From Candidatus Komeilibacteria bacterium (GTDB lineage: Bacteria > Patescibacteriota > Patescibacteriia > UBA1558 > UBA10009): 64,000 bases of DNA. The notes below the pieces were generated by a model that was given only the letters and a program-made list of their open reading frames with translations, was not told the origin of the DNA and did no database searches. A program made the translations under genes and the position numbers. The stretch is from positions 21,240-85,239 of the forward strand of contig JAUYIT010000008.1 in NCBI GenBank assembly GCA_030688315.1, given 5' to 3'. Position 1 is the first letter of the stretch, and each line of letters starts with the position of its first letter. Positions 2,323 to 64,000 of the stretch are shown one piece after another.

Positions 2323-2334
2323 ACTTTCTCAAAT

Positions 2335-3063: not shown

Positions 3064-3069
3064 AATAGA

Positions 3070-26428: not shown

Positions 26429-26429
26429 C

Positions 26430-45961: not shown

Positions 45962-46092
45962 ATCGGTTGTTTTTCTTAACCTTTCGGTTGTTATTTTTAG
46001 TAGCTTAGCTTTAGGCGATTACGACGTTATCCTTGGCGAAGCATTCATATGACATTGTAAGCTAACGCTGTACATTTGTCAAGCAAAAAAAA

Positions 46093-46806
46093 TTATAAAC
46101 TCATTTGTGTCTCTTTAGCGACAGGATATAGGCCGTCTAACCTTATTTTTGCCACGATTGGATTGATATTAAAAATATCAACGATTGAATTTATTGCCAA
46201 CGCTCTTTTAGTGGGATCAAGTTGTTTAATGCCCAACAATCCGGCCTTTATTTTGTAAGGTTCTAATGCTTTTTCAAGCAACGGCCGAGGTAATAATAAA
46301 GATCCTATAACAGAATTAGCCTGAAATTCCCACCATCGTCCATCGTAAGTTTTTAAAGATCCGGAATGGTCATTTCCTGGGACGTCTCGGCATAAAACCT
46401 TTGGCCTCCGAGGGTTTTGATAATCCGCAAATAATGGCCTGCTTGATGAAAGATTGGAAAATAAATGGGTATGCAACAGACAATGCCCGGCTTCATGCGC
46501 CAAAGTACTTCTAATCCGTCTTTCTGAGGCTTGGCTATTTTCTTCATCCAAACATCTGTTTATCATCATCGCTTGAACTCCTGTTTGACTGAAAATAGTA
46601 TAACCCAGGATACTATTTTCCATGTTTTCATATTGAGGAGTAATGTTGTATTTTTTTTCAATAAACCTATCTATTCTAATCGGAGCAGGTTCAAGGGGTA
46701 ATAATTCGTTTGCTTGAAGCTCGCTAAGGCAAATACTTTCGATCTCTTGCGGAGTAAAATAAGGCCTTTCCTTGAAAGGCCCGGTATGCGCTTTAAAGGT
46801 TTTCAT
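46093..46806 (-). CDS. ImmA/IrrE family metallo-endopeptidase (DUF955)
   Basis: HEXXH-type motif LAHEAGHCLLH. Immediately downstream of and overlapping the XRE gene. Confidence 0.7.
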   Translation of the reverse strand: MKTFKAHTGPFKERPYFTPQEIESICLSELQANELLPLEPAPIRIDRFIEKKYNITPQYENMENSILGYTIFSQTGVQAMMINRCLDEENSQASERRIRSTLAHEAGHCLLHTHLFSNLSSSRPLFADYQNPRRPKVLCRDVPGNDHSGSLKTYDGRWWEFQANSVIGSLLLPRPLLEKALEPYKIKAGLLGIKQLDPTKRALAINSIVDIFNINPIVAKIRLDGLYPVAKETQMSL

Positions 46807-47147
46807 TTCTTTCGCCCTTTATTTAATTTTTTAATAATATCATCAGCGTCTGCTTTATTTTTAATATCACCCATTACTTGCCGGAAGGCAAAGCCAAATC
46901 CAGGATGAAGTTCATTCATGCGTTTTAATTCTTCAACTGGCGGCCGTGTGTCAAAAGTTAATAAATAATCAACCTTTACTTCTAATAAATCGGCAATTTT
47001 ACTTAATACATGATTGGATGGAAATCTCCTTCCTAATTCAATATCCGAGATAAAAGGAGCGGATAACTTTAATTTATCAGCGAATTCACGCAAAGAGTAT
47101 TCTTTTTTCTGCCTTAAATCCCTAATTATATTGCCTAGATTTTCCAT
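46803..47147 (-). CDS. XRE-family HTH repressor (ImmR-like)
   Basis: ..YSLREFADKLKLSAPFISDIELGRR.. 4-nt overlap with ImmA. Confidence 0.7.
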   Translation of the reverse strand: MENLGNIIRDLRQKKEYSLREFADKLKLSAPFISDIELGRRFPSNHVLSKIADLLEVKVDYLLTFDTRPPVEELKRMNELHPGFGFAFRQVMGDIKNKADADDIIKKLNKGRKK

Positions 47148-47218
47148 ATTTACAGCTTAGTTTAACTAGTGTAAGCTTATAATGTTAATCAATTTTTGTC
47201 AATCAACCGTCAACATAT

Positions 47219-48022
47219 ATGAATAAAAGGGTAAATAAGCCGCATCTTTCTTACAAGAAAAACATGGATAACATGAAGCTCCTGGCCTCATTTAGTGAAT
47301 TTCAAACTTTAGTTGGCGAGGCAAGAAAATTTTTGGATATTCCAGAAGAAGGATTATTAAATGGTAAAGATTCAGAAAAATGGCATAAGGGATTTGTTAA
47401 AAAGAGCGATTTTATAATAGAATCTAAAAGCTTTAATGAGCGGTGTAAAAAGATAAGTGAAAAATTAAAGTCAGGGGAAATTACTAGAAATATCGCTAAT
47501 GAGCAGTTAAAGCTGTTACACCAGCAAATTCCAATTAATTACTTAACGAACATGGTTAAATTTATTGTTGATAAATTTTATCTACCTTTAAATTACCAAG
47601 ATAGCATAAGGCGGTATATTTTATTGAATAAAATAGAGGCACCTTACAATAATTTTATTGTTGGACCTTATATTAATATTAAAAAAATGAGCGATGTTAG
47701 GTTTGTCCCTATTACCATTTACGCTAAATTAACTAGGGAAGAAATTAAAGACCTTCAAAAGGAAATAGACCTGGTTGGCGAAAATTTGCCAGTGTTTAAT
47801 CCTTTAAAAGATATTGATAAAAAATTAGCATTTGAAGAATGGTTAAAAGAGGAAAATCGGCAAAGATCCTCTTACGATGAAGAGTATGTTTTAACAGTGG
47901 CCGAAATAGCGGAAGATAAACTTGGTAGCACAAAAAAGGTCAAGAGCATTTATGATGCTATAAAAGGGTTGAAAGACCTCAGAAAAAAACGATTTAAACA
48001 GTCGGGAAAAACTGAACCATAA
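47219..48022 (+). CDS. hypothetical protein (Lys/Glu-rich)
   Basis: ORF only; no family recognised. Confidence 0.35.
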   Translation: MNKRVNKPHLSYKKNMDNMKLLASFSEFQTLVGEARKFLDIPEEGLLNGKDSEKWHKGFVKKSDFIIESKSFNERCKKISEKLKSGEITRNIANEQLKLLHQQIPINYLTNMVKFIVDKFYLPLNYQDSIRRYILLNKIEAPYNNFIVGPYINIKKMSDVRFVPITIYAKLTREEIKDLQKEIDLVGENLPVFNPLKDIDKKLAFEEWLKEENRQRSSYDEEYVLTVAEIAEDKLGSTKKVKSIYDAIKGLKDLRKKRFKQSGKTEP

Positions 48023-48100
48023 AATCCCGACTGGCTAAAAGCGTAATATGATACCGTGAAAATATACTTCACGGTATTTTATTATTAACCAAAAAAATTT

Positions 48101-49444
48101 ATGCCCAAAAAGCAAAATTTTAGTAGGGACAAGTTGGACATCAACTATGTCCCCATCTCGATACTCAAGCCCATCGATCTAAATCCAAGGGTTTGGTCTA
48201 AGGATGCCATAGGTCAGTTAAAAGAGAGTATCCGTAAATTCGGAATGGTCGATCCTCTTTTAGTTAATTCAGCGCCAAATCGTAAAAACTTTGTTATTGG
48301 AGGCAACTTCCGACTTTCAATAGCAAAGGAAATGGGCATTGCTGAAGTTCCAGTGGTGTATGTCAATATACCTGATCCTGAGCGAGAAATGGAACTGTGT
48401 GTCCGCTTAAACAAAAACGTCGGCGCGTTCGATATGGATGCCTTAGCAGACTTTGGCGAGAGTTTCCTTAAAGACATTGGTTTTTCTAGTGAGGAATTGG
48501 ATTCTATCTTTGAGATTGATGAATTACCGGAAGTATTTGATTTAAACAAGGAATTGGCCAAATTGGACATTAAAAAAGTTGAGGCAAAGAAAGGCGATGT
48601 TTGGCTACTTGGTAATCATCGCCTTTTTATAGGCGACAGCATGATAGAAGAAGACATGTTGAAACTTATGGATGGCCAAAAAGCCGATATGTGTTTCACG
48701 GATCCACCATATATTTTGGACTACCTCAAGGGCAAGAAGAAAAAAGGCGAAGCAACAACTGGTTTCGGCTATAAGCGTGACCGTAGGTATTTGGAAACCG
48801 ATGTTTTGCCACCTGATTTTACCGAAAAATGGATCGGCAACGTGGCTAAAGTAGCTAAAGATGATTTCAGTATTATTATTTACGAAAACTGGAAAAACAT
48901 CAGAACCATTTGGGGTGAGATGGAGAAATACTGGAAAATCAAAAACATGATCGTTTGGCATTTACAGAATCGAACTCAGGGTTTTGCCGGTAGATACAAA
49001 TTCTTTTCCAAACATGATATTGCCATGGTTGGAACTTCGGAAAAGCAAGGCGGCCTTAACCTAAAGACAGAAGAAGAATTACTGCAAAACGAATACGAGA
49101 CCGCTTTGTACGCCATTTCCGGTCATCCGCAGTGGGAATCTTACGAGAAAGGTAAAAAATACTGCCCGACTGACTTTATTGAATACAAAGCTAGTGATGA
49201 AAAATCTTCTGGACAAGGAATTATTTTCGGCACTAAGCCCTTGGAAATCCTGATTCCTTATTTAAAGGTACTAACTAAGCGTGACCAACTAGTACTAGAA
49301 CCATTCGGTGGCTCGGGTAGCACGTTGATTGCTTGTGAAAAAATGAAACGCAAGTGTTTCTTAATGGAAAAATCTCCTGTCTACGCCGAAGTGATAAAGG
49401 CCAGGTGGCAAAAATTAACCGGCCAAAAGGCTAAAAAGTTATGA
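48101..49444 (+). CDS. ParB-like nuclease domain fused to N6-adenine/N4-cytosine DNA methyltransferase (phage-type orphan MTase)
   Basis: N-terminal ParB-like region (..ISILKPIDLNPRVW..) and a C-terminal DPPY motif (CFTDPPYILDY) with an SAM-binding region ..LEPFGGSGSTLIA. Confidence 0.7.
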   Translation: MPKKQNFSRDKLDINYVPISILKPIDLNPRVWSKDAIGQLKESIRKFGMVDPLLVNSAPNRKNFVIGGNFRLSIAKEMGIAEVPVVYVNIPDPEREMELCVRLNKNVGAFDMDALADFGESFLKDIGFSSEELDSIFEIDELPEVFDLNKELAKLDIKKVEAKKGDVWLLGNHRLFIGDSMIEEDMLKLMDGQKADMCFTDPPYILDYLKGKKKKGEATTGFGYKRDRRYLETDVLPPDFTEKWIGNVAKVAKDDFSIIIYENWKNIRTIWGEMEKYWKIKNMIVWHLQNRTQGFAGRYKFFSKHDIAMVGTSEKQGGLNLKTEEELLQNEYETALYAISGHPQWESYEKGKKYCPTDFIEYKASDEKSSGQGIIFGTKPLEILIPYLKVLTKRDQLVLEPFGGSGSTLIACEKMKRKCFLMEKSPVYAEVIKARWQKLTGQKAKKL

Positions 49445-49905
49445 GTAAGGATGAAAAGAAAAAGGCAACTATTCAGGTGAGAAAGAATAAGGATAAGCTC
49501 GCCTTACTGGAAAATCTTAAATCAATTCCAATTATTGAGGTGGCTTGTAGTAAAGCGTCAATCAGTCGAGCTACTTACTATCGTTGGCGGGACGAAGATG
49601 AGGAATTCTGTAAAAATGCTGATGAAGCAATCGCCGAAGGCGAGAAAAGGATTAATGACATGTCAGAGTCACAATTGATTTCATTAATTAAAGATAGAAG
49701 CATGCCTAGCATCGCCTTCTGGCTTCGCCATCATCATCCTAAATACTCCAATAAGTTGGAGGTGGTAGCTAATATTAATAACTCTAATCAACAATTAACA
49801 CCGGAACAACAGGCCGTTGTTGAGAAAGCCTTAACTTTGGCTTTTACTAACAATGCTGAAAATTCCGGGGAAGAAAGTAAGCAACTATATGGAACAAGTA
49901 TTTGA
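49441..49905 (+). CDS. phage terminase small subunit-like HTH protein
   Basis: HTH ..ACSKASISRATYYRWRDEDEEF.. It overlaps the terminase large subunit gene. Confidence 0.45.
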   Translation: MSKDEKKKATIQVRKNKDKLALLENLKSIPIIEVACSKASISRATYYRWRDEDEEFCKNADEAIAEGEKRINDMSESQLISLIKDRSMPSIAFWLRHHHPKYSNKLEVVANINNSNQQLTPEQQAVVEKALTLAFTNNAENSGEESKQLYGTSI

Positions 49906-51388
49906 TTCGGAAATGTTAAAACGCATTTACGAAGATGGTGCAGTGCGCAAGGCTATTGCTCGTCAAAGCCACTTCATGCACTTTAATATTTACCACGCTG
50001 GGTATATTAAATACCCAACAGCACAGTTCCAAAGAGAAATCTTTGCGATTACTGAAGATCCAACGATTAAGACAGCTGTAATCACGGCCTTCAGAGGGGC
50101 CGCTAAGTCATCTATTATCACTACCTCTTATCCCATCTGGGCAATACTTGGGTTGCCTGCTAAAAGATTTGTCGTAATAATCAGCCAAACTCAACGTCAG
50201 GCTAAACAGCACCTGCTCAACATTAAAGCGGAGCTCGAAAGCAATGAATTGTTGAAGACCGACCTCGGACCGTTTACAGAGGATCGCGGCGAGTGGGGGT
50301 CATATAGCTTAATAATTCCCGGCTATAATGCCAAAATTATGGCCGTCAGCATTGAAGAAAGTTTTAGAGGTATCAGGTACCTTGAAACAAGACCAGATCT
50401 GATTATTTGTGATGACGTTGAGGATTTGGATTCGGTTAAAACTAAAGAAGGCAGGGATAAGACGTATCGCACTTTAATGGCTGATATATTGCCCTTAGGC
50501 GACCTTGATACCAAGGTTATTATCACAGGGAACCTTCTGCACCACGATTCGTTAATAATGAGATTAAAAAAGGATATTGAAGAGGGGCGTTTTAATGCCA
50601 CCTTCAAAATGTATCCATTAATTGACGATGATGGCAAGATCTACTGGCCGGGGAAATTTCCAGATCAGAACGCCTTGATGGAATTCAAGAAAAACGTTCC
50701 CAGCGAAATTGATTGGATGAGGGAATATTTATTGAAAATCATGCCGGATGATGGGCAAGAAATTCTGCCGGAGTGGATTCACTATTATGACGAGATTCCT
50801 CATGACAAAAAGGCCTATCGTCATACTCTTACTGGAGTTGATCCGGCGGCGTCTGAAAAAACCCACGCTGATTTTACAGGTATCGTATCGGCTAGGATAT
50901 TCGGCTATGGGGCGGATATGAAAATTGTAATTTTACCTAATCCAATTAATAGAAAGATGGGGTTCCCTGAAGCCGTTGCGGAACTTAAAAGACTTTACGA
51001 TTTTAAGGACGGCGGAAAGTCCAGACGAATATTGGTTGAAGGGTATGGTTATCAAAAGGTGTTAGCTCAAATGCTTGTAAGTATTGGTATTCCAGCTCAA
51101 GAAACGATTCCCTTAGGCATGGATAAACGAGCCCGGTTAAGAATGACTTCGCAGTTTATATCTACCGGAAGGATTGTGTTTCCAAGGCACGGAGCCGAAG
51201 AGTTGATCAATCAGCTGGTTTACTTTGGGGCTGAAAAGCATGACGATTTGGTTGATGCTTTTACCCTGGTTGTTTACAAGGCGTTAGAAGAGATGAAAAA
51301 ACCTGCTGTGCCAGAAATTTGGTTTATAAATCATGGTCATTCAGGTAGAAGAGGTTTGTCTGATTTTATCGATGAAGATGATGACTAA
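49853..51388 (+). CDS. phage terminase large subunit (ATPase + nuclease)
   Basis: Walker A-like ..TAFRGAAKSS.., Walker B ..LIICDDVEDLDS.., and a C-terminal RNase H-like nuclease. The true start may be the internal MEQVF at 49889. Confidence 0.75.
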   Translation: MLKIPGKKVSNYMEQVFDSEMLKRIYEDGAVRKAIARQSHFMHFNIYHAGYIKYPTAQFQREIFAITEDPTIKTAVITAFRGAAKSSIITTSYPIWAILGLPAKRFVVIISQTQRQAKQHLLNIKAELESNELLKTDLGPFTEDRGEWGSYSLIIPGYNAKIMAVSIEESFRGIRYLETRPDLIICDDVEDLDSVKTKEGRDKTYRTLMADILPLGDLDTKVIITGNLLHHDSLIMRLKKDIEEGRFNATFKMYPLIDDDGKIYWPGKFPDQNALMEFKKNVPSEIDWMREYLLKIMPDDGQEILPEWIHYYDEIPHDKKAYRHTLTGVDPAASEKTHADFTGIVSARIFGYGADMKIVILPNPINRKMGFPEAVAELKRLYDFKDGGKSRRILVEGYGYQKVLAQMLVSIGIPAQETIPLGMDKRARLRMTSQFISTGRIVFPRHGAEELINQLVYFGAEKHDDLVDAFTLVVYKALEEMKKPAVPEIWFINHGHSGRRGLSDFIDEDDD

Positions 51389-51505
51389 ATCAAGAATCGG
51401 GATCGAGCCTTTGGTTATAGTCATGATAAATCAATGACCTGTAAAACTAAAAACTCCGGTGGTAAGCCGGGGTTTTTAGTTTTAACCTCAATAAAGTGTG
51501 CTTGA

Positions 51506-52450
51506 TTATTTCTGCCAACTATTTCCATCAGCAAAGTGAGTTTCATAAATTTCAGCTGTAATTTTAGTGGCGGTATCATAGCCGAAAAGTTCCCAAGATA
51601 TATCAATAGTAGCTCCGGGGTTTATTGTTTTTTGAGCGATGCCATCAAAATTATTATCGGACAAAAATCCATTAACTGGCTCATCAAAATTATTAAAAGT
51701 TTTAATGTTAACTTTGAGTCCATCTATAATTTTTTCGGAAATATTTTTGACTTTTAAATTAGCGACAGGGGTGTCGATAATATTTTTTGTTACGCTGGTT
51801 GAAACTATTTCAACAGGCGATGGTTCTTTATTATCAATGACGTTAACTTGCTGCTCCGAATCATTATCTGATTTAACGGGATTGTTTGAATTTACTATTT
51901 CCTTTACTGAACTGGACATTGCAATAGAACCACCGATGATCGCCATTATGATTAAGGCAATAATCATAGTTAGCGAACGATGTTTTTCATAGAAAGTTTT
52001 GTCCTCTTTTTCTTCATCTTGGTCACTGCCTGATTTTTCCAGCTTCTTATTAAAATTATTGGCAATAAGGTGGAAAATCAATCCTCCGAATAAGCCGATG
52101 ACAAAGCCGAGTCCAATGGCCATAGTTCCACCGATGGCGGCTCCTAAAGCGGCACCTGCCTGTGCGGCACCACCATTTGTTTGAGTAACAACACTTGACC
52201 CAAAGGCAACCGTGAATACTATTGCCGAAATCGGTAATAAAAACATACCAATTTCCGAGATCCTGAACAGTTCTTTTAACAAGCGGTTTTTATTACCGAT
52301 GTTAAAAACTAAAGCCGCTGTGAATGCCCAAAAAAGGATAAAGGCAATGCCTGCTCCTTTATTTAAGGTCATCCAAGCGTAATTCTGAGTGAAAATGATT
52401 GCTGGAAGCAAACTCACTAGAATTTTAGATGCGATGTATTTTTTATTCAT
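51506..52450 (-). CDS. hypothetical membrane protein with C-terminal extracellular beta-rich domain
   Basis: N-terminal TMs, a Gly/Ala-rich helix, and a C-terminal ~120-aa domain. Confidence 0.4.
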   Translation of the reverse strand: MNKKYIASKILVSLLPAIIFTQNYAWMTLNKGAGIAFILFWAFTAALVFNIGNKNRLLKELFRISEIGMFLLPISAIVFTVAFGSSVVTQTNGGAAQAGAALGAAIGGTMAIGLGFVIGLFGGLIFHLIANNFNKKLEKSGSDQDEEKEDKTFYEKHRSLTMIIALIIMAIIGGSIAMSSSVKEIVNSNNPVKSDNDSEQQVNVIDNKEPSPVEIVSTSVTKNIIDTPVANLKVKNISEKIIDGLKVNIKTFNNFDEPVNGFLSDNNFDGIAQKTINPGATIDISWELFGYDTATKITAEIYETHFADGNSWQK

Positions 52451-52703
52451 AATACATTTTTGGTTAATTAATAAATTTGCGGAAAACCAAAAAGTTCCCC
52501 GCTAGCCCAGGCTTGTTTAAGGCCCCATACCCGTTTCCAGATATGACCGCAAAGGTAAGCTAAACGAGGAACTCCTCGTAACCTTTGCGGATTTACAACC
52601 ATGCCCGTTGAAACTCAACGAGTTTAGGCTATCTAAATTGTGCCTTTATAATAGCTAAAAATAAGAAAAAATGGAAGTCCTAGTTACCGACAGGTTACCA
52701 ACT

Positions 52704-52745
52704 GGGCAAAATCATAATATCAAAAGCCCCCGTAAATAGGGGCTT
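52704..52745 (-). terminator. rho-independent terminator downstream of MTase gene
   Basis: Stem aagcccc/ggggctt followed on the minus strand by tttgatattatgatttt. Confidence 0.4.
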
Positions 52746-52809
52746 ATTGATTACGGATTAATTATTTTTCCGCATTGATCGCAAGTAACTATAAGTGGGG
52801 TTATAATTA

Positions 52810-55077
52810 TCAAGATTCAACGACTCTTATTTCGTCTTCAGTGAGATCATAAAGTTTATACACCAATGTATCTATTTGATGTTCGAGATCTTTGACCTTT
52901 GCTTGTTCTGCAGAATTATTCTTATATTCCGGAAGCTTGGCGATTTCTGAAATTTTTTCAACAAGATCAGTAAATGATCTTTGCTCATCGGGCAATATTT
53001 TCTTTATAGGGAACTGATCTAAATGCCTTCTTTTAACATATGGGAACACTTCCTTGTTGGTAATAAAAAATTGACTATAAATATACGTGAAGAGTTTAGA
53101 ATTTAATAGGGCTAATAGATATTCTTCTTGCACGTCCTTATCTTTAATGACAATGTTATATAAAGATTGGATAGTAAAAAACTTTTTTGTATCAAGACAA
53201 GCTGTAAATTCTTTACCAGTTTTTCTTAGAAGTATTTTTTTATCCGATAAGTATACTTTTTCATTATCATTACTATGAATTTTCTCCTTATCAAAATTTA
53301 CATAATTACCCCTATCAATATAAAACCATTTAAAAATATCTTTACCTGACAATATCGGCTTACTATTTTTAAAAATAGGGCTATCGGATATCATTTCTTT
53401 CTGACCTCCAGTCATAATCCCGATGTAATTTAAAGCTATTTTACCTAATAGTTCAGATCCTTGTTTCATCTTTTCCAAAATTGAATCTGCTATACTTCCT
53501 TTTGGAAAATCAAAAACATATTTATCATTACTTTTGTATTTATCCTGATTAATAAGTACCCGTTTTGACTTATCGAATAAATCATCGAATAAAATAGTGT
53601 TATCTGAATTATTTGGATCTTTTTGAAAAACAGAAATTATATTATCAACAATAATTCCATTAAAAATATTAGGAGGAAGTTTATTGAATATCTTTATCCG
53701 AACATTATCAAGTAAAAACTTTCTTATCTTAAAAGAATAAAAATTTGATACAAAATTCCACGGGCTTATAAAAGTTATGAAGCCGTACGTTTTTGATATT
53801 TTAATTGCCATCTCAAAAAACAAGACATATAAATCGAGTTTATCATAAGCCGATTCGAAAAGTGTTGAGTATATCTTTTTTTGAGTGTCGCTAATTTTTC
53901 CGTATTTTGTAGTTACATAGGGCGGATTTGCAATAACCACATCAAAACCGCCATTCTCTTGAAAGACTTCGGAAAAATGTAGTTTCCACAAAAAGAATGG
54001 TCTTGAGCTTTCTCTTTCTAGCTTCTGGAGTGTTGACTGTATAGCTTCTATTTGTTGGTCGGCATCCTTAATTTTCTTTTCGTCTTGAGTATTTTTCTTT
54101 ACAGTATTTAATCTTTTAATTTCTTCATCGCATTTCGCCGTTATAAAGGATTGCTCTTTTTCATCAATTTTCTGTTTTAATATGAGTTTCTTGTTTTTAT
54201 TATTTTCCTCAAAATAAACGCTATGTAATTTTTTTAGTTCAGTAAAAATATCTTCACTTTTATCTCTAAAAAGTTTTTCTTGCGTTTTTTTCTCAAAAAG
54301 ATTTTTCATCTCTTTGGTACGATGATCAACCTTAACCAAATCATCAAGATTAAATTTAATAATCGTATCACCAATAACCAAATCCTCAATCAAGCTATTG
54401 CCCTGCATTATTTTATAATCCAAGTTCGGCAATGGTTTGATTTGTTTAATATCGTCCTCGTCAACGATTAAAGAGAGCCATAAACGAAGCTTGGCAATTT
54501 CAACAGCTCCCGGATCAAGGTCAACACCATAGAGAGAATTTTGAATGCAATCACGCTTGAAGCCGTAAACCGTTCGGTCGGTATTTTTAATATAACTAGA
54601 AAGCACAGTCCGAGCTTTTACTATCTCGCTCATCATACCAACCGGAAAAGCCCCGGAGCCAATGGCCGGATCGCAAACTTTAATAGTAGCTAGTTTGTCA
54701 TCAATTTCCTCGGCAAACTTACCAATGGATTCTGGTAAAATTGATTCATACGTGCCTTTATAGCCCGGATCGTCTTCTTTTTTGGCAAGATAGGTAGCTT
54801 CGTGCTCGGCGACATTCTCTCCAAACTTAATAAGCTCCTCTAAATCTTCTTTGGAGACTTTACTCTCAAGCTCGGTTGCAAGATAATTGATCAAACTTTG
54901 TTCACACATATAGTGAACTATTTCCCGAGGCGTATAGTAGGTGCCCTTGGACTTACGGTCTTTAACTTCCAGTAAGTTCTCAAACACCTTGCCAAGCATC
55001 TCTGGGTCCACGGCTACCTCTTTTTCAAGAGGTTCGTCTTCTTTAACAGTGAAGTTGTAACGATCAAAGATGTCCAA
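52810..55077 (-). CDS. N6-adenine DNA methyltransferase, C-terminal part (NPPY motif VIANPPYV; gamma-class, Eco57I/MmeI/DrmMI-like); frameshifted relative to 55085..56161
   Basis: Motif I ..DPAIGSGAF.., motif IV NPPY, and a long C-terminal TRD-like region. The reading frame continues upstream without an ATG (TTG in the track). Confidence 0.65.
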   Translation of the reverse strand: MDIFDRYNFTVKEDEPLEKEVAVDPEMLGKVFENLLEVKDRKSKGTYYTPREIVHYMCEQSLINYLATELESKVSKEDLEELIKFGENVAEHEATYLAKKEDDPGYKGTYESILPESIGKFAEEIDDKLATIKVCDPAIGSGAFPVGMMSEIVKARTVLSSYIKNTDRTVYGFKRDCIQNSLYGVDLDPGAVEIAKLRLWLSLIVDEDDIKQIKPLPNLDYKIMQGNSLIEDLVIGDTIIKFNLDDLVKVDHRTKEMKNLFEKKTQEKLFRDKSEDIFTELKKLHSVYFEENNKNKKLILKQKIDEKEQSFITAKCDEEIKRLNTVKKNTQDEKKIKDADQQIEAIQSTLQKLERESSRPFFLWKLHFSEVFQENGGFDVVIANPPYVTTKYGKISDTQKKIYSTLFESAYDKLDLYVLFFEMAIKISKTYGFITFISPWNFVSNFYSFKIRKFLLDNVRIKIFNKLPPNIFNGIIVDNIISVFQKDPNNSDNTILFDDLFDKSKRVLINQDKYKSNDKYVFDFPKGSIADSILEKMKQGSELLGKIALNYIGIMTGGQKEMISDSPIFKNSKPILSGKDIFKWFYIDRGNYVNFDKEKIHSNDNEKVYLSDKKILLRKTGKEFTACLDTKKFFTIQSLYNIVIKDKDVQEEYLLALLNSKLFTYIYSQFFITNKEVFPYVKRRHLDQFPIKKILPDEQRSFTDLVEKISEIAKLPEYKNNSAEQAKVKDLEHQIDTLVYKLYDLTEDEIRVVES

Positions 55078-55084
55078 AATGCCA

Positions 55085-56161
55085 TCACCAATGTCGCCAG
55101 TTTTTTAAATTCTTGTGATCATTTGAAAATAAGTCGTTTGGAATATTTATTGCTGTGTTAACCCAATCATAATTATTGATCGGGTCAAAAAGACCGCCGT
55201 TCAAAAATGGAATTTTACATTCGAAACGGCTATAAAAATCATCGTCTCTTTCTTTGGCTAAAGCTTCATAAAACAACGGTTCAAGATAATCGTTAAAATA
55301 ATTTTTATTTGCGTCGCAAGCTTTGGTAAATAAAGTCCTCAAAAACCACTTATCACCATCGCCCCAGCTTTTGATCATCGGAACACCAAACCAACCTTTT
55401 TTCTGTAAGAAATATAAGAAAACAATTTGACCAAGTAATTTTTTAGAAAAGTCTACGATGTTAACATTCTTATCGGTAAAATCTTTTTTGATAGCCGGAT
55501 CATTACTAACAATATCTTCCAACGTCTCTTGAACTCTAAGGAATAGATCCCGATATTTTTCAAAAAATTCTTCGGTAACCTTTTCAATGTTAAAGGCTTC
55601 TTCAAGTCGCTTAAGCAAAGGATTATGGCTATCGTCCTCAACAATGGGAGAGAGGCGACTTTGGGCAGTATGGCTATTTTCGTTTGTACCAACTAAAAAC
55701 GACCAGCGTTTGGCTGGGGTAAACTCTTCTTTTACCTTGGCGCGTCCATTTTTGCCTTCCTCAAATTTATATTCCATCTTAACCAACGAGAAACGCCAAT
55801 CGCCGGAATCCGGAGACACAAAAGCAACTAAGGCCGCATCTTTTTGTTTTCCACCCCGACTACCATTTAAATACCAAGCAATAAAATTCCTTTGTCTCGT
55901 CCTTGCTCGTTCAAGCGTTGAATTCTTTTTTAGATGAACAATAAGGACATCAATGCTATTTTCGCCATCAAAATATTTACCGACTCTTTCAAATGTGCTT
56001 ATATATTGATCGTATGCGTCGGGAATAGTGTTTCCGCGATAAACAAAAGAAGCCTCTTCGTAAGAATTAAGGAGTTCACGGATAAATCTGATAAACTTTG
56101 TTTTATCAAAAGAATTTTGAAATACATCCTTTACCAGATTTTGTGACTGCTTTTTCTCCAT
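55085..56161 (-). CDS. N-terminal part of the same methyltransferase/restriction protein (possible PD-(D/E)xK-like region ..SPDSGDWRFSLVKMEYK..)
   Basis: It ends 8 nt before the C-part. The frames are joined by a 1-nt change in the A6 tract (plus-strand T6 at 55101..55106). Confidence 0.55.
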   Translation of the reverse strand: MEKKQSQNLVKDVFQNSFDKTKFIRFIRELLNSYEEASFVYRGNTIPDAYDQYISTFERVGKYFDGENSIDVLIVHLKKNSTLERARTRQRNFIAWYLNGSRGGKQKDAALVAFVSPDSGDWRFSLVKMEYKFEEGKNGRAKVKEEFTPAKRWSFLVGTNENSHTAQSRLSPIVEDDSHNPLLKRLEEAFNIEKVTEEFFEKYRDLFLRVQETLEDIVSNDPAIKKDFTDKNVNIVDFSKKLLGQIVFLYFLQKKGWFGVPMIKSWGDGDKWFLRTLFTKACDANKNYFNDYLEPLFYEALAKERDDDFYSRFECKIPFLNGGLFDPINNYDWVNTAINIPNDLFSNDHKNLKNWRHW

Positions 56162-56165
56162 ACGT

Positions 56166-59100
56166 TTACTTGATTAAATATTCAGACAGAATCACTTCTC
56201 GCTTGCCGATATTGATTGCACTATACTCGGCAAAATGACCACTTAGGAGTCGATTGGAAATGTTAGTTTCAAGTATGCCAAGTATACGCAAAGGACTTGG
56301 TACTTTATTTGTTTCCAATTCTTTATTTAAGACCTGAAGCGTGACTCGAGTGGTTTGTTTTGGCAAGCCACCTTCTTCCAGTTGAATAATAATCTTTTTG
56401 AGATATAATTCCTGATCTTCGGTAAATTGTCGGCGATCTTTCATTGTTGCCTTAATAATTCGCAAAATCTGAGTGGCACTGTCTCGGCCGCCTCTCATTT
56501 TTACTTCCGGAATTTCTTCAGTAGTTGCAAAAATAAAAGCCTTTTTATTCTCATCCAGTAATCCGTAAAAGTTTTTATCTGTTTTTTCTTGGTTAGTTTT
56601 TTCAGCAGTTTCAAGAATTTTCGCCGTCGACATAAAGTCTAATTCTTTAGAGTCGTTGCCAGTATTAGCTATAAAGAATTTTTGCACTTTACCACGGCGG
56701 AAATAAGTAATAAGGTGGCCAGCCAAATTTTTATCTATTCTTGCGGTCCTGGCTTTTTTGGGTAAATGCTTTATTTTCTCAAAGAGATCTGGATTTTTAT
56801 CACGCAATTCTTTGATTGCATGCAAATATTTCAATTCGCTTTCCTCACCATCGTCTTCACCGGTGATAAATTTCTCAGAAGTTAACCTATTAAACAGTTC
56901 GTGTGAACCAATTGGTTCGTTTTCAGTTAAAAGATGAGCGTCTCCGCCAAGGAGAGCCAAGAAGGCGTTAATTTTGGCTTCAGCGGCTTCCCGAAGTTTG
57001 ATCTGATCATTTCCTTGTTTTGTCGGGAAGAAGTTATAAGTGTAAATTTTATCAAATTTGGTATCAACACGATTAATACGACCAACCCTTTGCATCATGC
57101 GAGTCGGGTTCCAAGGAATGTCATAGTTAATGACCACATTAGAACGGTGTAGGTTTACACCTTCAGCCAAGACTTCAGTACAAATAAGAATGCGATAATC
57201 ATCCTTGGGAAATTTAGCTTTGGCGTCAAAGTTTTCAATAACTTGTTCACGGACTAATTCGCTAGAACCGCCGGTAAAACATACCGCTTGGCCGGGTATT
57301 TTTTCTTCAATATTCTGAGTTAGATATTCCGCCGTTTCTTTTGACTCAGTAAAGATAATTAGTTTATTCTTTTTGAGAATCGGATTAGTAGAAAGTTTAT
57401 CAATAAAAGCTACGAGCTTTGGATCTCGTTTAATACCGACCCACATAGCATGTATTTCTTTCAAAATATCTAAGTCGTTTTGTAAATCCTTTCTTAAACC
57501 ATCTTTAAAATCCTTACTTGGAAATTTTTCAGCTTTACCCTTACTGATCAAATTTTCAACAGCCTCATCATTATCATCTTCTAAATACTCAAAAATCTTA
57601 TTAGTATACTTCTTGCTGACATAAACATCGCCTTTTTCCAATTCAGACAAAAAAGAAATATACGAATTTATAAATCTATCAAGAGAATTACGGAAAGCGT
57701 AAAAACTGCTCTCCAGACGTTTGATAAGCAAAATCTTCATAAACTTACCCATGTTCATTTGTGCCAATTCTTCCGGCTGACTCAACTCGCCTTTATAGTA
57801 AAGCATTGGGGTATAACGAGAGTATTTGAATTTTTTGGCGATTAGTTCAATCGTCTTGATGAATACCGAATCTTCGTTCTCGTTCAGCTCATAGAAAACT
57901 GCCTCGGGTTTTTCAACCTCAGGGAATTTCAATTTTTGCTTAGCCAAGTCTTCAACAAAGTATTTATTAATCTCCGAACGAGTTCGGCGAACCATTAAAT
58001 ATTTCAAAACCTTTTCTCTAATCTCTTTAGCATTTTCTTTAACTGTATTTATATAAACTGCATAATCCTTTTGACGGTCAAGATTTTTTAGTTTCCTCTC
58101 CAAACTAGCAAAAAACTGTTCAAGATCTGGGAGGTTCGGAATAGTACTCTTTCGAGCTTTTTGGAAAAGTTTAATTTGACTCAAAATATCTTTTGGCGAG
58201 TTGTTATAGGGCGTAGCAGTAACAAGGATAATTTTTTTACCCCGGCAAATTTCCGCTAATTTTTCATACGTAGCATTATTTTCAGTCCTAAATCTATGAG
58301 CTTCATCAATAATAATGTTATCAAATTTCTCCACCCCTCGCTTAATAATTTCATCAAGTTTACCGACGGATTCACATTCTGCTGAAACCTTAAAATCAAG
58401 TAGCACATTAGCCCATGATCCAGGATTCTTTTTATCAATCAAAACAGGAGGGGCGATTACTAAAGTTCGGCCATCCAACTGCCCTGCAAGCATGGAGGCA
58501 ATATAAGTTTTACCAAGACCAACAACATCGGAAATAAAAACTCCACCATATTCCTCAAGAATCTTTTTCGCGTTTATAACGGCTTGCTTTTGATATTCAA
58601 ATTCCTTAAATTCCTCTGGGAGATATTTCAAAAACATCTCATCTTGCTGGTTTAGATCATCTTTAAAATATTCATATAAAAACTTAAGATAAAGTTCGTA
58701 GGGAGTAATGCTGTCGTTAAGCCATGTTTTTGTCTGAATAGTTTCAATATATTTTTGGCTGACATCAACAGCATCTTGCCAGAGTTCGTTAAACTTTTCT
58801 AAGGCAAAATCGTAGTCGGCTCTGTTTTTAAGCTCAACGTTAAACTCCAAGTTATCCATGAGGCCGGCTTGAGTAAAATTGCTTGATCCGGTGATTACTC
58901 TGCCTTTATCCCTATCCTCATCACTAAAGGTCATAATATAAACCTTGGCGTGTATTTTTTCTGTTGGATAGGCACGAATTTCAAGGCGGCTGGATTTTAT
59001 CCATTCAATAAATTTGAAGACACCGTCCTCCACTTTTTCGCTATCCTCGGCTTCCTCCATTTCTTTCTCAATCGCAGTACCTAATTGCTCCTTAGTTTCG

Positions 59101-59360
59101 GCACTGGAAAATTGCAGAGCGGATTGCTCGGCTGGATTTGCTTTCTGCATCAAATCATATGTTTGCTGATTAGTACTGATACCAATAAGAATTCTAACCT
59201 TGTCGGTGCTTTCAAGAGATTTGTATAAAGCATGAAAACCACTAGTATAAAAATAACCAACCAGACAATCAAAAAATTTAGTGTCTTTGATTAATACCTC
59301 GAATCTCTGTTTAAGACTTTGACCTTTTTCGTTTGTTATAAATGTTAAGTCAGAATTCAT
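56166..59360 (-). CDS. PLD-family nuclease domain fused to SNF2/SWI2 helicase (DEAH + helicase C)
   Basis: N-terminal HxK PLD motif (..EKIHAKVYI.. / GSSNFT), then ..GLGKT.., DEAH (IIIDEAHRFR) and helicase motif VI (..MMQRVGRINR..). Confidence 0.8.
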   Translation of the reverse strand: MNSDLTFITNEKGQSLKQRFEVLIKDTKFFDCLVGYFYTSGFHALYKSLESTDKVRILIGISTNQQTYDLMQKANPAEQSALQFSSAETKEQLGTAIEKEMEEAEDSEKVEDGVFKFIEWIKSSRLEIRAYPTEKIHAKVYIMTFSDEDRDKGRVITGSSNFTQAGLMDNLEFNVELKNRADYDFALEKFNELWQDAVDVSQKYIETIQTKTWLNDSITPYELYLKFLYEYFKDDLNQQDEMFLKYLPEEFKEFEYQKQAVINAKKILEEYGGVFISDVVGLGKTYIASMLAGQLDGRTLVIAPPVLIDKKNPGSWANVLLDFKVSAECESVGKLDEIIKRGVEKFDNIIIDEAHRFRTENNATYEKLAEICRGKKIILVTATPYNNSPKDILSQIKLFQKARKSTIPNLPDLEQFFASLERKLKNLDRQKDYAVYINTVKENAKEIREKVLKYLMVRRTRSEINKYFVEDLAKQKLKFPEVEKPEAVFYELNENEDSVFIKTIELIAKKFKYSRYTPMLYYKGELSQPEELAQMNMGKFMKILLIKRLESSFYAFRNSLDRFINSYISFLSELEKGDVYVSKKYTNKIFEYLEDDNDEAVENLISKGKAEKFPSKDFKDGLRKDLQNDLDILKEIHAMWVGIKRDPKLVAFIDKLSTNPILKKNKLIIFTESKETAEYLTQNIEEKIPGQAVCFTGGSSELVREQVIENFDAKAKFPKDDYRILICTEVLAEGVNLHRSNVVINYDIPWNPTRMMQRVGRINRVDTKFDKIYTYNFFPTKQGNDQIKLREAAEAKINAFLALLGGDAHLLTENEPIGSHELFNRLTSEKFITGEDDGEESELKYLHAIKELRDKNPDLFEKIKHLPKKARTARIDKNLAGHLITYFRRGKVQKFFIANTGNDSKELDFMSTAKILETAEKTNQEKTDKNFYGLLDENKKAFIFATTEEIPEVKMRGGRDSATQILRIIKATMKDRRQFTEDQELYLKKIIIQLEEGGLPKQTTRVTLQVLNKELETNKVPSPLRILGILETNISNRLLSGHFAEYSAINIGKREVILSEYLIK

Positions 59361-59361
59361 A

Positions 59362-59541
59362 TTATTTTTTTAATAAATTTAGAATGTTATTTTTCTTATA
59401 TCTTCTGTCGCCACGAACTCCAAATCTAATGGCTTTCAAAACCCCCTTATTATCCCACTTTCGTAAAGTATTTGGATGGCAATGTAGAAGTTCACACGCT
59501 TCACTTAAGGTTATGATTTCATCGTTCTTTTTTATTGTCAT
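59362..59541 (-). CDS. small HTH_17/excisionase-like DNA-binding protein (59 aa, below ORF-track cutoff)
   Basis: rc translation MTIKKNDEIITLSEACELLHCHPNTLRKWDNKGVLKAIRFGVRGDRRYKKNNILNLLKK. Its stop is 2 nt upstream of the PLD-SNF2 start. Confidence 0.5.
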   Translation of the reverse strand: MTIKKNDEIITLSEACELLHCHPNTLRKWDNKGVLKAIRFGVRGDRRYKKNNILNLLKK

Positions 59542-59684
59542 AAAAGAAGTAATATTTAACTTAACATTACTTTACACCTATTTTAAATCAAAGTAAAGTC
59601 ATTTTTTAGAAGTTTTAGGATTAAAAGTTATCTACTCGGGACGCTCTGGACTCCTTTAGGGATCAGCGTCATCAATAGTGTTAT

Positions 59685-61016
59685 ATGGAATACGCAAATT
59701 ATCAAGGGTTTAAAGGGGCTTCTATCCAAAACCAAGTTCAGGCCCCAGTAAAGGTCAAATATTGCCTTTACGCAAGAAAATCAACGGAATCAGAGGAACG
59801 CCAAGTCCTCTCTATAGATAGCCAGATAAAAGAGATGATCCGGCTAGCTGAAAGAGAAAAACTGGATATTGTAGAGATTAAGCGGGAAAGCCATTCAGCT
59901 AAAGCAACCGGACAACGGCCAATCTTTAACGAGCTTCTGACTGATCTTAGGCAAGGCAAGTTTAATGGTATCCTAACTTGGGCTCCTGATAGAATATCCA
60001 GGAATGCTGGCGACCTCGGAGCGATAGTAGATCTGATGGATGAAAAACTTTTAATAGACATACGAACGTTTAGCCAAAGCTTTAGTAACAACCCAAATGA
60101 AAAATTCTTGCTGATGATTTTAGGTAGTCAGGCTAAACTTGAAAACGATAATCGTGGCATTAACGTAAAACGTGGTTTAAGATCCAGAGCAGAAATGGGT
60201 TTTTGGACAGGACTTGCTCCGCTTGGGTATTTAAACCAGAATAGAGTAGATAAAAAGGGCGATGTCATTATTGATCCGGTAAGAGCGCCTATTATTAAAC
60301 AGATGTTTGAAAAAGTTGCTTATGAATATTATAGCGGCAGGAAATTGTTTCACTGGCTGAAGTTTGATATTAATTTTAAAACCAGGGGTAATAAAAATCT
60401 TACACTAAGCGGAATATACAGGGTAATAAACAGCTCATTTTATTACGGGATGTTTGAGAGGCCGCAGGGTAGCGGTACTTGGTATAAAGGTCAGCATAAG
60501 CCACTAATAACCCAAGAGTTATTTGAAAAAGTCCAAGAACAACTTCAAAGAGCAGAAAAAGAACGTAAGAATAGGGATTTTGCCTTCACTAAATTATTAA
60601 CTTGTGGCTACTGCGGATCAGGGGTAACTGGGCAAGAAAAATATAAGCATCTTAAAAACGGAACCATAACTACCTATATTTATTATGGTTGTACCCGGGG
60701 CAAGGATAAAAATTGTAAAAGTATCTACATTAGAGAAGAAGAGTTGATCGTAGAGCTGCTTAAAATTATTGACCAAGTGGAAATAGATAAACTCGGTATG
60801 AGGTATAAGCTAGAAGCCGAAGTTGAAAGATATAATAAATTTCAAGAATCGGTACTAGGGAGTAGTCCCGATAAAAATATCCCGACTAAAAAAATTGACG
60901 TACGAACGTATGCCAAGTATATATTACAAAATGGAGTGATTACTGAAAAGAGAGAGCTACTGGCTTTATTACAGAGTAAGCTAATTTATAAGGATAAAAA
61001 AATTACTCTCCTTTAA
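59685..61016 (+). CDS. large serine recombinase (resolvase catalytic domain + recombinase domain + zinc ribbon)
   Basis: ..YCLYARKSTESEERQ.. catalytic Ser region, and a C-terminal CGYCGSG...YYGC Zn ribbon. Confidence 0.8.
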   Translation: MEYANYQGFKGASIQNQVQAPVKVKYCLYARKSTESEERQVLSIDSQIKEMIRLAEREKLDIVEIKRESHSAKATGQRPIFNELLTDLRQGKFNGILTWAPDRISRNAGDLGAIVDLMDEKLLIDIRTFSQSFSNNPNEKFLLMILGSQAKLENDNRGINVKRGLRSRAEMGFWTGLAPLGYLNQNRVDKKGDVIIDPVRAPIIKQMFEKVAYEYYSGRKLFHWLKFDINFKTRGNKNLTLSGIYRVINSSFYYGMFERPQGSGTWYKGQHKPLITQELFEKVQEQLQRAEKERKNRDFAFTKLLTCGYCGSGVTGQEKYKHLKNGTITTYIYYGCTRGKDKNCKSIYIREEELIVELLKIIDQVEIDKLGMRYKLEAEVERYNKFQESVLGSSPDKNIPTKKIDVRTYAKYILQNGVITEKRELLALLQSKLIYKDKKITLL

Positions 61017-61779
61017 AAGTATTAGTAGTGAATTTTTTCTGCGCGCGTTGAAAATTCTCAGTTTTCATAAGCTCTTCTTTTAAAGATTCATTTTCTTTTC
61101 TAAGCTCCTTAAGTCTTGTAATAAAATCATCGGAAAAATTAATTACTTCAAAATCTTTGTTTATTCCCCCAAAAATATCCATGAAGTTACCGGCACAAAG
61201 GCCTAGTGTCCATAGATCAGTTTTAACCAAAAAATCATTTTCCTTATCAAAGAATGGAGTGGCAAATTTTTTTCTCTCTTCATCTAAGTAAAAATTTTGT
61301 TGGGCATAAACTATATTTGCATGCGCGGTCGAAGAATTAATTGATTGTTTGATATTTTTAATTGCTAAAGAAGCCTGCGGATACCGTTGTTCAAGCCAAT
61401 CATATCTTTTTTTAGTTAATTCTTTAGATGGATCCATTATTTCCTCTTCATTTATATCAGCAAAATCTTTAATATCTATATTGCCAATAGCATAGGCTGC
61501 GCAGGCACCTGATTCCAGGGATTGCCTTAAATCCATCATAGCCTGAACATGGTGGAGTCTTACTGTTGAAAATAAGGCCAAAGTATGGTGTTTTCTAATT
61601 TGTGAAAGAAACATAGTGAAAATAAACCTATCAGGATCCACGGATTTTATAAATTCGTTTAGTAGATGATTTAATTCAGCGGAGTTAATAAAATGCCTAC
61701 CAAAGCGTTCAGCTCCAGCAAGAACCATTTCTTTTTCGCTTTCAAGGATATCGCCTAATGTTGATTGTTTGAAGTCCAT
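61003..61779 (-). CDS. hypothetical protein
   Basis: ORF only. Confidence 0.35.
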   Translation of the reverse strand: MDFKQSTLGDILESEKEMVLAGAERFGRHFINSAELNHLLNEFIKSVDPDRFIFTMFLSQIRKHHTLALFSTVRLHHVQAMMDLRQSLESGACAAYAIGNIDIKDFADINEEEIMDPSKELTKKRYDWLEQRYPQASLAIKNIKQSINSSTAHANIVYAQQNFYLDEERKKFATPFFDKENDFLVKTDLWTLGLCAGNFMDIFGGINKDFEVINFSDDFITRLKELRKENESLKEELMKTENFQRAQKKFTTNTFKGE

Positions 61780-61783
61780 ATGA

Positions 61784-62518
61784 TTAATACAGTAATGGGT
61801 TTAAGTCAGTCTGGATATTCAGATTGTAAGCTAATAAACTAGGACAAAGTTGAGTTAATGAAATATCATCAGAGCCAAGATTACAAAAAATCCATACTTG
61901 ATGAAATGGTTGAGCTTCATTTTTTAATAATAAATCGCTTATTTCAGTAATATTTAAATTTTCTATTGGTTTATTTAAACTTATTAAAAGTGTGGTTTGA
62001 GGAACGTATCTTTTTATAAATTTTTTTTCAATTATTAATTTAGCAATTTTTTGTGAATCATTTTCTCCCGCTGTATTATTAATTACTTCTGGCGGTAGGA
62101 AAATGCACTCTAAAGGGAATGCATTTATTGTATTACCTCTTCTATCTCCGAGTGCTTCAATGGGTACCAATGCAATATCTGGCACATCGCTTGATACTAT
62201 CAAATGTTTCCCGTAATTTAATTTTGCTAGTAGTAAAGTAAAATATATTGTTGGAAAAATTTCTTCACTAACTTTTTTAAATCGAGTATCCTGGAGCTTG
62301 CCTTTAGTTTTTTCTAAAGCGAAATTGACTAATTCAATTAGTTTTAATGGAGTAAAACCAATATTCCAATCGCCATGGGAACTGTTAGGGCTTAAATTAC
62401 GAGCCTGTAAATAAGTAAGAGCATTAATTAATTCTTCATCAATTAGCTCAAGGCCTAATGTTTTTTTAAAAAATGAATTACATTCTTCTTTTGTCCACAT
62501 AAAATTATTATCTTTCAT
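61784..62518 (-). CDS. hypothetical protein
   Basis: ORF only. Confidence 0.35.
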
Positions 62519-63959
62519 TAACTAGTTTTTTTTCTTGTTCTATGATGCTCCAATACGGCTCGGCGTAATTTCCCCCTCTCATATCTTTTAATACATCAAT
62601 TTGATCCTGTGGAATTTCTACAACTAATTGATCAAGATAGTCCAAGAAAGCTTGCTTATTGTTAAGTGAAAATATCTTTGCAGGAAATTCATTTAACCTT
62701 AAATATGACGGCGTGTTTTCAGGAAATTCCCTAAGCAGTAAAGCTGATTCTTTATCTAAGAAAAGTGCGTCACAGTATGGCAGATAACTAGCTATAAAGG
62801 AAACATCCGTTGTAGATTTTGGAGGATTCTTTTTGCCGTTCCTTGCCCGATGCGCTAATCCAGCGAACATGACGGCATTAATTCTGATCTGAGGTATTTC
62901 AAGTAGCGCGTTTACGTCAATAAAGTATTGAGCAATTGTTTCTTGTGTTTGTTCTTCTGATAAGCCTTTTTGTTTAGCAATTTTGACTAAATCTTCAATT
63001 GTATCATTGGCTGGCGGCGGTAATAAATCATCTAAATCAAAATTATAATTTTCTTCTCTAACTATTTTTGTCATAGCTAAAGATCTTCTTTCAATAAATT
63101 TTTTTACTACCTCAATTAACCCTTTCCCCATGCCCAATGTTTCCTCTTTTACTCTTTGCACAAAAGTGATATTTTTTTCATTTTGCCACCTAGTCCAGAC
63201 TTCTTTTAATTGTTCTTTTGTGAAAGTATTAACTTTTTGAATATTTTCTAATTGTCCTGGATATGGTCTTCCTCCGACAGATATCATCATGCCAGCCGAC
63301 CAAGAATGTAAGTCTTTTTCAAATGCTATATTTTCCGGCTTCAACTCAAATTTAATTTTTCTGCCTTCTAGCCATCCTTCAAAATGTTTAGTAATTTGGT
63401 CTCTTTCTATTATCACGCTAGGATAAAGAGTTTTTCCATTGGAAAAATGTTCATATAATCTTTTCATTAATCTGAAATCTATATTTCCAATTAATGACTC
63501 ATCTACATGATAAAAACTGTCAGGACAAACTATCGCTTGAGATTTTGAAGCAGCCTCAAGTTTTATGAATAAAGATTCCCAAAAAGGATCTGCCTTTATT
63601 CTTTCATGGCTCGGATGCGATTTGTCTAATAATTTTACCAAATTGCTAATAACAAATTGATCGAGATACAAAATATTCTTTTTAATCTTAGGCAAAATAT
63701 AATCCTTTTTATACCCACACTTAATACACTCTCTCGTATATGAACCTTGACCGGACATTAGAAAGGATACGCCAAAAGAATTTTCCGCTTGGCATTTTAG
63801 GTCAGGGCATTGTTTATATGGTTCTGAAATAAAATCTTTACGAGTTATAGTCATAACTTGTTTCTTGGGAATACTTTTTTGTCCATCCCTATCTAAACAG
63901 CATTTTTTATATTTTATTCCCGAACCGCATGGACAGGGATCATTTCTTCCTATTTTCAT
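62508..63959 (-). CDS. SEC-C metal-binding motif protein (N-terminal [16 protein letters not shown]), rest unknown
   Basis: The SEC-C motif read at the N-terminus. 11-nt overlap with the downstream hypothetical gene. Confidence 0.45.
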
Positions 63960-64000
63960 ATCTTATTATTTTACTATAAAACCGCCCTTTTGTGGACGGC

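Follow-up and report, generated by a model that had tools for sequence, protein, structure and literature searches.

A probable recent slippage insertion in the methyltransferase gene of a mobile defence operon from a Candidatus Komeilibacteria genome

When a large methyltransferase gene is found broken at a short run of adenines, is it a dead gene, a mistake in the sequence or a gene that can be switched on again? The question is raised by a 64,000-nt stretch of DNA, here called the window, which comes from a metagenome-assembled genome (MAG) of 'Candidatus Komeilibacteria' and on whose minus strand two open reading frames (ORFs), encoding the N- and C-terminal parts of an N6-adenine methyltransferase, follow one another at a run of six adenines (A6; Table 1). 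A first-pass annotation had regarded a pseudogene, a read error and a phase-variable switch as about equally likely. The evidence presented here separates these possibilities. The best-supported reading, to which we give a probability of about 0.6, is that a slippage insertion, real and very recent, has left a mobile defence operon with a null allele of its methyltransferase/specificity subunit; phase variation is the least supported of the three, and an error in the sequence retains a small share of the probability.

One methyltransferase gene in two frames

The proposal that the two ORFs are pieces of a single methyltransferase of ~1110 residues held at every point at which it met the sequence. 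The N-terminal product ends in NLKNWRHW before its stop codon, the A6 run lies where it had been placed, and deletion of one A from this run does fuse the two frames, into a single ORF of 1116 codons whose 1116-aa product reads ..FSNDHKNLKTGDIGDGILDIF.. across the junction. The minus strand at the run is ..aag aat tta aaa aac tgg cga cat tgg tga.., and downstream reading is shifted by +1 from the frame used upstream. Because a TAA closes the +1 frame immediately ahead of the run, and the 0 frame meets its TGA seven codons later, any repair is confined to ~21 nt that include the run. The fused junction matches that of the closest homologues residue for residue and with no gap (SNDRKNLKTGDIGDG in P0001, P0005 and P0012), and it aligned gap-free with 22 homologues, in which K353, D356, G358 and G360 are invariant. 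This agreement indicates that the split belongs to the sequence itself and that the two ORFs do not lie side by side by chance. The break lies within an almost invariant segment, which is among the most conserved of the protein.

The intact form would be a multidomain enzyme, with an N-terminal alpha/beta domain, a helical region, a gamma-class N6-adenine methyltransferase (motif I, DPAIGSGAF; motif IV, NPPY) and a TaqI-like C-terminal target-recognition domain, in that order. Four Pfam families match the C-terminal piece above their cut-offs (Eco57I, 4e-30; TaqI_C, 1e-25; N6_Mtase, 1.5e-16; MmeI_Mtase, 6e-9), and no Pfam domain was found in the N-terminal piece. The PADLOC profile REase_MTase_IIG matches the intact form across its full length (1e-255), and a search of the PDB with a profile of the family returned CamA, BseCI, TaqI and PglX/BrxX, with matches only in the methyltransferase and recognition part. 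The products of the split gene are deposited at NCBI, from a 119,830-bp contig, as MDP2586310.1 (N-terminal piece, 'hypothetical protein') and MDP2586309.1 (C-terminal piece, 'TaqI-like C-terminal specificity domain-containing protein').

Related DNA identifies the ancestral state. The three closest DNA relatives (L002, L003 and L004) have ..AAAAACTGGCGAC, an in-frame A5, in place of the A6 of the window. The additional A accounts for the sole gap in alignments of 3893 nt (87.8% identity) and 5440 nt (88.7% identity); the event was therefore a +1 insertion that converted A5 to A6. We extended the comparison to 167 related loci, of which three came from exact protein look-ups, 80 from JGI metagenomes, 80 from GTDB genomes and four from IMG/VR. 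Every one of them yielded one in-frame tblastn segment across residues 340-366 and none was shifted at the site, in searches limited to the best 80 matches and in which loci shifted exactly at the junction may be under-sampled. Across these loci the length of the A-run at the homologous position varies from 2 to 6 and never exceeds 6, as set by codon choice: coding for KNLKTGD gives A5, and E-K-T written as GAAAAAAC gives an in-frame A6. The approximately ten closest relatives that encode KNLKTGD or KDLKTGD all have an in-frame A5. A comparison with orthologues, which the first-pass annotation had called for, thus found intact single ORFs with A5 at the site, among them a protein from a JGI metagenome (P0122; 1120 aa) that is 93% identical to the repaired product over 1116 residues, with no gaps and with the recognition domain included.

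The lesion, if real, must be young. Relative to L002, the ratio of nonsynonymous to synonymous substitution rates (dN/dS) is 0.04 overall, 0.03 in the N-terminal piece and 0.044 in the C-terminal piece, at a dS of ~0.8, and no second stop codon or indel was found in the repaired methyltransferase gene. The low dN/dS and the lack of a second lesion leave two possibilities, a frameshift of very recent origin or one that is not real.

Broken copies occur elsewhere in the family at other positions. Frame changes away from this site were present in seven of the 167 loci, one of which (L047) is a scaffolding artefact with NN. A protein search with the N-terminal piece returned short relatives only (326-612 aa), mostly fragments at contig ends; about 12 of these have out-of-frame tails, the starts of which are scattered over residues 306-366, with none at K353, and in one of the proteins (P0135) the frame is shifted at a T-run eight codons upstream of K353. 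Such sporadic disruptions mean that an occasional broken copy belongs to the background of the family. As a separate observation, the methyltransferase gene of L004 (ENA WOOD18 scaffold_8370), the DNA of which is ~86% identical, bears two frame changes and ~35 nt deletions that leave pieces of 481 and 288 aa, and it looks like a truly decaying copy.

According to the reading that we prefer, one A would have been inserted into the A5 run (tta aaa act to tta aaa aac t), most likely by replication slippage, and translation would stop seven codons later, leaving the first 353 residues detached from the methyltransferase core and from the recognition domain. Because this separation falls inside a highly conserved segment, the allele is most likely null. 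The gene would then be a very young pseudogene, which in the sampled population would be fixed or at any rate predominant, and we infer that the insertion is real in the cells and abolishes function. The neighbouring gene encodes an intact helicase-nuclease which, by analogy with Type I, Type III and bacteriophage exclusion (BREX)-like systems, probably needs the methyltransferase/recognition subunit to find its targets. If it does, loss of that subunit would switch off modification and restriction together without killing the cell, and the tolerated presence of an intact nuclease would fit such a dependence. Decay of acquired defence genes on mobile low-GC islands is commonplace.

Sequence error, switch or recoding

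Several points weigh against a real insertion. What is available is a consensus assembled from the metagenome of one sample, and the two assemblies that contain it share their reads. The complete absence of further decay would fit an artefact as well as it fits a very recent mutation. In the NCBI annotation the two pieces stand as ordinary proteins, not as a pseudogene, and a nuclease able to act alone would make loss of the methyltransferase beside it harmful. The main rival is that the cells carry A5 and an intact gene, and that A6 is an error of the consensus or of polishing, or else a minority variant picked by the assembler. Besides the origin of the contig in one MAG and one sample, what makes this plausible is that there is exactly one lesion, that it lies in a homopolymer and that there is no sign of relaxed selection, as expected of an error in a functional gene; the scaffolding artefact in L047 shows, in addition, that artefacts occur in the records of this family. 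On the other side, an independent k-mer based Logan assembly of the same run (SRR13727534) contains a 5025-nt contig that is identical to positions 52051..57075 of the window, A6 included.

The homopolymers of the window also speak to this question. We scanned every homopolymer in the window for a change of ±1 that would join two ORFs, each of 100 codons or more, and obtained eleven sites. The ten others all fall at boundaries between adjacent ORFs; three of the ten were checked with Pfam and proved to separate distinct genes (PBP1/DHODH, RuvC/YebC and two pilin paralogues), and no other homopolymer-split gene was found in the 64 kb. The pilin case (25988..26912, minus strand) consists of two tandem paralogues of ~160 aa, with weak matches to T4SS-pilin (PF18895), which the homopolymer change would fuse. 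The window contains 201 A/T runs of length 6, 64 of length 7, 21 of length 8 and two of length 9, and 75 of the 87 runs of at least 7, which would be likelier to fail first, lie inside intact long ORFs. With these 75 runs intact and no other gene split, systematic miscalling of homopolymers is unlikely, and we regard an error confined to this one run as an unlikely explanation as well, if the strongest of the competitors. The first-pass annotation had proposed that uniform A6 reads together with intact orthologues would mark a fixed pseudogene; the orthologues bear out their half of this proposal (intact, A5), and the half that concerns reads is only approximated by the A6 of the Logan assembly. 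By exact protein look-up, the N- and C-terminal pieces were both recorded in SRR13727534 only, the helicase, looked up in the same way to trace other samples with the strain, was not on record, and a literature search for the run accession found no paper.

A phase-variable switch, with A5 as the ON and A6 as the OFF state, would toggle the methyltransferase reversibly and at high frequency, and the defence system, or a regulon that depends on methylation, would be toggled along with it. The lesion is a +1 change within a homopolymer, and methyltransferase genes of the restriction-modification (R-M) type are the classic place for such switches; one slippage event would restore the gene, and the lack of other damage is compatible with a reversible OFF state. 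The run is nevertheless short for this purpose, as had been suspected from the outset. A/T runs shorter than 9 are weak candidates and mainly runs of at least 8 vary in surveys (PMC5084427), and the cut-offs of PhasomeIt are 9 for G and 11 for T (PMC5953494); A6, or A5 when ON, lies below all of these lengths. Within the same gene, four A7/T7 and twelve A6/T6 runs are all in frame, and runs of six are common throughout the window. The relatives too are at odds with a switch, since none of the 167 loci is shifted at the site (in searches whose ranking may disfavour shifted loci), the run never grows beyond A6 and the closest relatives with the same coding uniformly retain A5. The repaired 1116-aa allele itself was absent, by exact look-up, from 15 billion proteins. 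A contingency locus is expected to have, in its ORF or promoter, a hypermutable repeat (for a homopolymer, ~8-9 or more) and a polymorphism of repeat length with ON and OFF alleles among relatives; the site has an A6 run derived from A5, and no OFF allele among the related loci. The run is without the hallmarks of an evolved contingency locus and is merely a somewhat likelier place for slippage, and we consider high-frequency phase variation highly unlikely.

A milder version of the same idea is very improbable too. It holds that the short A5/A6 run serves as a low-rate, biologically used, reversible switch that turns the defence operon off and on within the population or, in a variant, that the frameshift uncouples an active 755-aa methyltransferase from restriction. 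Its premise is that a bacterium of the candidate phyla radiation (CPR) may lack mismatch repair and hence experience elevated slippage.

The least probable of the explanations that we considered is that the split gene is usefully expressed, by a +1 ribosomal shift, by slippage of RNA polymerase or by re-initiation at the TTG codon 8 nt past the stop, which would give a 755-aa methyltransferase. After a +1 shift, the Lys-tRNA on AAA could again be perfectly paired (AAA A), which would produce the native ..NLKTGD.., the C-terminal piece holds a complete methyltransferase core and recognition domain, and GGTGAT is found 6 nt before the TTG. Against this, no orthologue needs recoding, all of them being in frame, and no relative is naturally split here; the break falls inside an almost invariant segment. 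There is no slow codon or stop after the slip site to drive +1 shifting, and the in-phase heptamer that is present, A_AAA_AAC, promotes shifting to -1. A programmed -1 frameshift at this heptamer was rejected, because repair requires a +1 shift and the -1 frame closes after ~30 codons. Transcriptional slippage increases exponentially as runs lengthen, runs rarely suffer deletions, and across the transcriptome no restoration of frame was seen (PMC5574713), all of which argues against rescue by RNA polymerase. Re-initiation at the TTG with GGTGAT as a Shine-Dalgarno sequence is a weak proposal, since the genes of the window have A/T-rich leaders, ATG starts and no Shine-Dalgarno motif; GGTGAT and TTG are probably meaningless as signals here and just encode the conserved IGDGIL. 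Reading UGA as a sense codon was dismissed, because TGA ends 10 of the 52 long ORFs of the window and UGA recoding would leave the frame unfixed.

The practical meaning of a real and recent insertion, or of its main rival, is the same for annotation: MDP2586310.1 and MDP2586309.1 are halves of one frameshifted gene, to be treated as a pseudogene or a possible error. The case also illustrates that a homopolymer frameshift in a methyltransferase gene is, by itself, no evidence of phase variation, and that comparison with orthologues and with the background of runs in the genome can settle most of the ambiguity without reads. The broken copy is an ordinary finding. A worthier target is the operon to which it belongs, a widespread and horizontally mobile pairing of an HKD-SNF2 protein with a type IIG-like methyltransferase, for which, as far as the literature was searched, we found no experimental characterisation as a unit.

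The operon and its surroundings

Immediately upstream of the methyltransferase gene lies its partner (Table 1), which encodes PLDc_2 at residues 33-194 followed by ResIII, SNF2-rel_dom and Helicase_C in Pfam, matches 'HKD+Snf2' in PADLOC (2e-50) and is full length and 96% identical to the copy in L003. A helicase gene is situated upstream of the methyltransferase gene in 70 of 84 related loci screened, directly adjacent in 63 of the 70 and across a gap of ~1 kb in the other seven. As for the 14 loci without it, the DNA of 13 starts within the methyltransferase gene or at most ~170 nt from its start, and the fourteenth (L053) contains only a truncated copy of that gene; wherever upstream DNA exists, the helicase gene is there. 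The genes on the downstream side are not conserved. Two of them in L003, of 228 and 981 aa, were rejected as members of the operon, being present in one and five of 168 loci, respectively. The constant upstream helicase and the unconserved downstream genes define the unit as a two-gene helicase-nuclease/methyltransferase operon.

Table 1. Features of the split gene, its operon and the surrounding DNA (positions in the window)
Feature	Position	Strand	Remarks
Whole ancestral methyltransferase gene	52810..56161	-	1116 codons after removal of one A
N-terminal fragment	55085..56161	-	358 aa; final 5 residues, NWRHW, out of frame
A6 run (plus-strand T6)	55101..55106	-	Site of +1 insertion; ancestral A5 (tta aaa act, Leu-Lys-Thr)
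Premature stop TGA	55085..55087	-	Ends N-terminal fragment
C-terminal fragment	52810..55077	-	755 aa from first TTG of the frame (an ORF-caller convention, not a demonstrated start codon); holds whole methyltransferase core and recognition domain
HKD/PLD-SNF2 partner gene	56166..59360	-	1064 aa, intact; stop 4 nt before methyltransferase ATG
MerR/HTH_17-type gene	59362..59541	-	59 aa, unlisted; ends just before helicase start codon; Pfam MerR_1 7e-9, HTH_17 3e-8
Terminator-like hairpin	52724..52745	-	8-bp stem with 5 G-C pairs, T-rich tail; 65 nt past methyltransferase stop
Large serine recombinase	59685..61016	+	Divergent from defence operon
Low-GC island	46000..64000		Looks like prophage remnant or integrative element
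IrrE/M78-like gene	46093..46806		In low-GC island
ParB-N6_N4 methylase	48101..49444		In low-GC island
Small and large terminase-like genes	49441..51388		In low-GC island
SEC-C-motif protein	62508..63959		In low-GC island
Further defence-like or mobile-element-like genes	42787..44214, 44480..45709, 37612..38745	-	All on minus strand

The edges of the operon are less firmly drawn. A 59-aa helix-turn-helix gene ahead of the helicase gene may be the first gene of the operon, as its regulator, or may encode an excisionase-like factor of the island. L003 has at the same position a 72-aa gene of the HTH_3 (Cro/C1) type instead, and to judge from this difference the small regulator ahead of the operon appears to be exchangeable. 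At the other end, the hairpin found in a consensus scan probably marks the end of the operon.

Some relatives carry additional genes. In L011 an extra gene (2260..3291) between the helicase and methyltransferase genes encodes a RhuM-family protein (Pfam, 2.7e-101), and the gaps of ~1 kb in L015, L019, L020, L025, L033 and L042 suggest an extra gene there too; insertion of RhuM-type genes is frequent inside Type I R-M operons. A protein of ~980 aa without a Pfam or PADLOC match is encoded 3' of the methyltransferase gene in L003, L032, L086, L144 and L154, and it may be an accessory component in some versions of the system.

Relatives of the operon that are >60% identical in the conserved half are spread across many phyla, which implies frequent horizontal transfer. 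Their hosts include CPR bacteria, Omnitrophota, Nitrospirota, Deltaproteobacteria and Dehalococcoidia, among others, and four of the relatives are on viral contigs (IMG/VR). The setting in the window is in keeping with mobility: GC content is 33-38% from ~46 kb to the end of the window, as against 42-47% earlier, and this low-GC stretch, with its recombinase, terminase-like genes and ParB-methylase, would by its gene content indicate a mobile island or a prophage remnant. No capsid or portal gene was identified in the island, and a megablast of the region against a phage database gave no match. Just upstream of the island lie further genes resembling those of defence systems or mobile elements, which encode a protein with Schlafen AlbA_2 and HATPase_c_4, a DUF4238 protein and an AAA_14/DUF4143 ATPase.

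Comparison with known defence systems

The split gene invites comparison with the Type III mod genes of phasevarions (ModA, ModH, ModM and ModS), in which the frame of an N6-adenine methyltransferase of the R-M type is likewise broken by a change in the length of a simple repeat within the ORF, and in which loss of the methyltransferase or specificity subunit is expected to silence restriction too. Known phasevarion switches, however, vary from strain to strain and consist of long tracts or of tetra- or pentanucleotide repeats in multiple copies, whereas the A5/A6 run is fixed by codon choice, unexpanded in relatives and invariable among the 167 loci. The enzymes differ as well: phasevarion Mod proteins are beta-class, and the present one is gamma-class with a C-terminal recognition domain.

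Two further defence systems share components with the operon. Class 1 DISARM (defence island system associated with R-M), which comprises DrmD, DrmMI, DrmA/DrmB and an optional PLD protein, DrmC, resembles it in combining a SNF2-type helicase, a PLD-type nuclease domain and an N6-adenine methylase, but the PLD domain is fused to the helicase here. The NCBIfam model DISARM_DrmD scores 142 bits against a cut-off of 610, DrmMI gives partial matches only, and neither DrmA nor DrmB is found in the operon, which is bounded by the divergent recombinase gene and the terminator-like hairpin. The methyltransferase core is distantly similar to PglX/BrxX of BREX; BREX_1_MTaseX scores 83.7 bits against a cut-off of 500, and no match to PglZ or BrxC was found among the neighbouring genes.

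Type IIG/IIL enzymes (Eco57I, MmeI, DrdV) provide the best profile match for the methyltransferase (PADLOC REase_MTase_IIG; Pfam Eco57I, MmeI_Mtase, N6_Mtase and TaqI_C). They share with it the arrangement of an N-terminal domain, a helical region, a methyltransferase and a recognition domain in one chain of ~1100 aa, and specifically a gamma-class N6-adenine methyltransferase (DPAxGSG, NPPY) fused to the recognition domain. Enzymes of this class are also expected to carry an N-terminal PD-(D/E)XK endonuclease domain in the same chain. Type IIG/IIL enzymes are single proteins without an obligatory helicase partner, whereas the protein studied here is accompanied by the helicase in 70 of 84 loci.

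That partner brings the operon close to the BREX-related Type-2 BR and Gao_RL/MANTIS systems. A Type-2 BR locus is recognised by genes for a DUF499 AAA+ ATPase and a DUF3780 protein, together with a methyltransferase whose recognition domain is nested (PMC12839542). Neither DUF499 nor DUF3780 gave a Pfam or PADLOC match in the genes flanking the operon in the window and in L003, and the recognition domain here is C-terminal (TaqI_C) rather than nested. The likeness lies in the pairing itself: in these systems an N-terminal HKD endoDNase on a Swi2/Snf2 helicase is paired with an N6-adenine methyltransferase that marks self DNA (PMC12839542; bioRxiv 10.64898/2026.09.23.753747), and the partner of the split gene has the same HKD domain at the N-terminus of a helicase of this kind (PLDc_2, ResIII, SNF2 and Helicase_C; 'HKD+Snf2').

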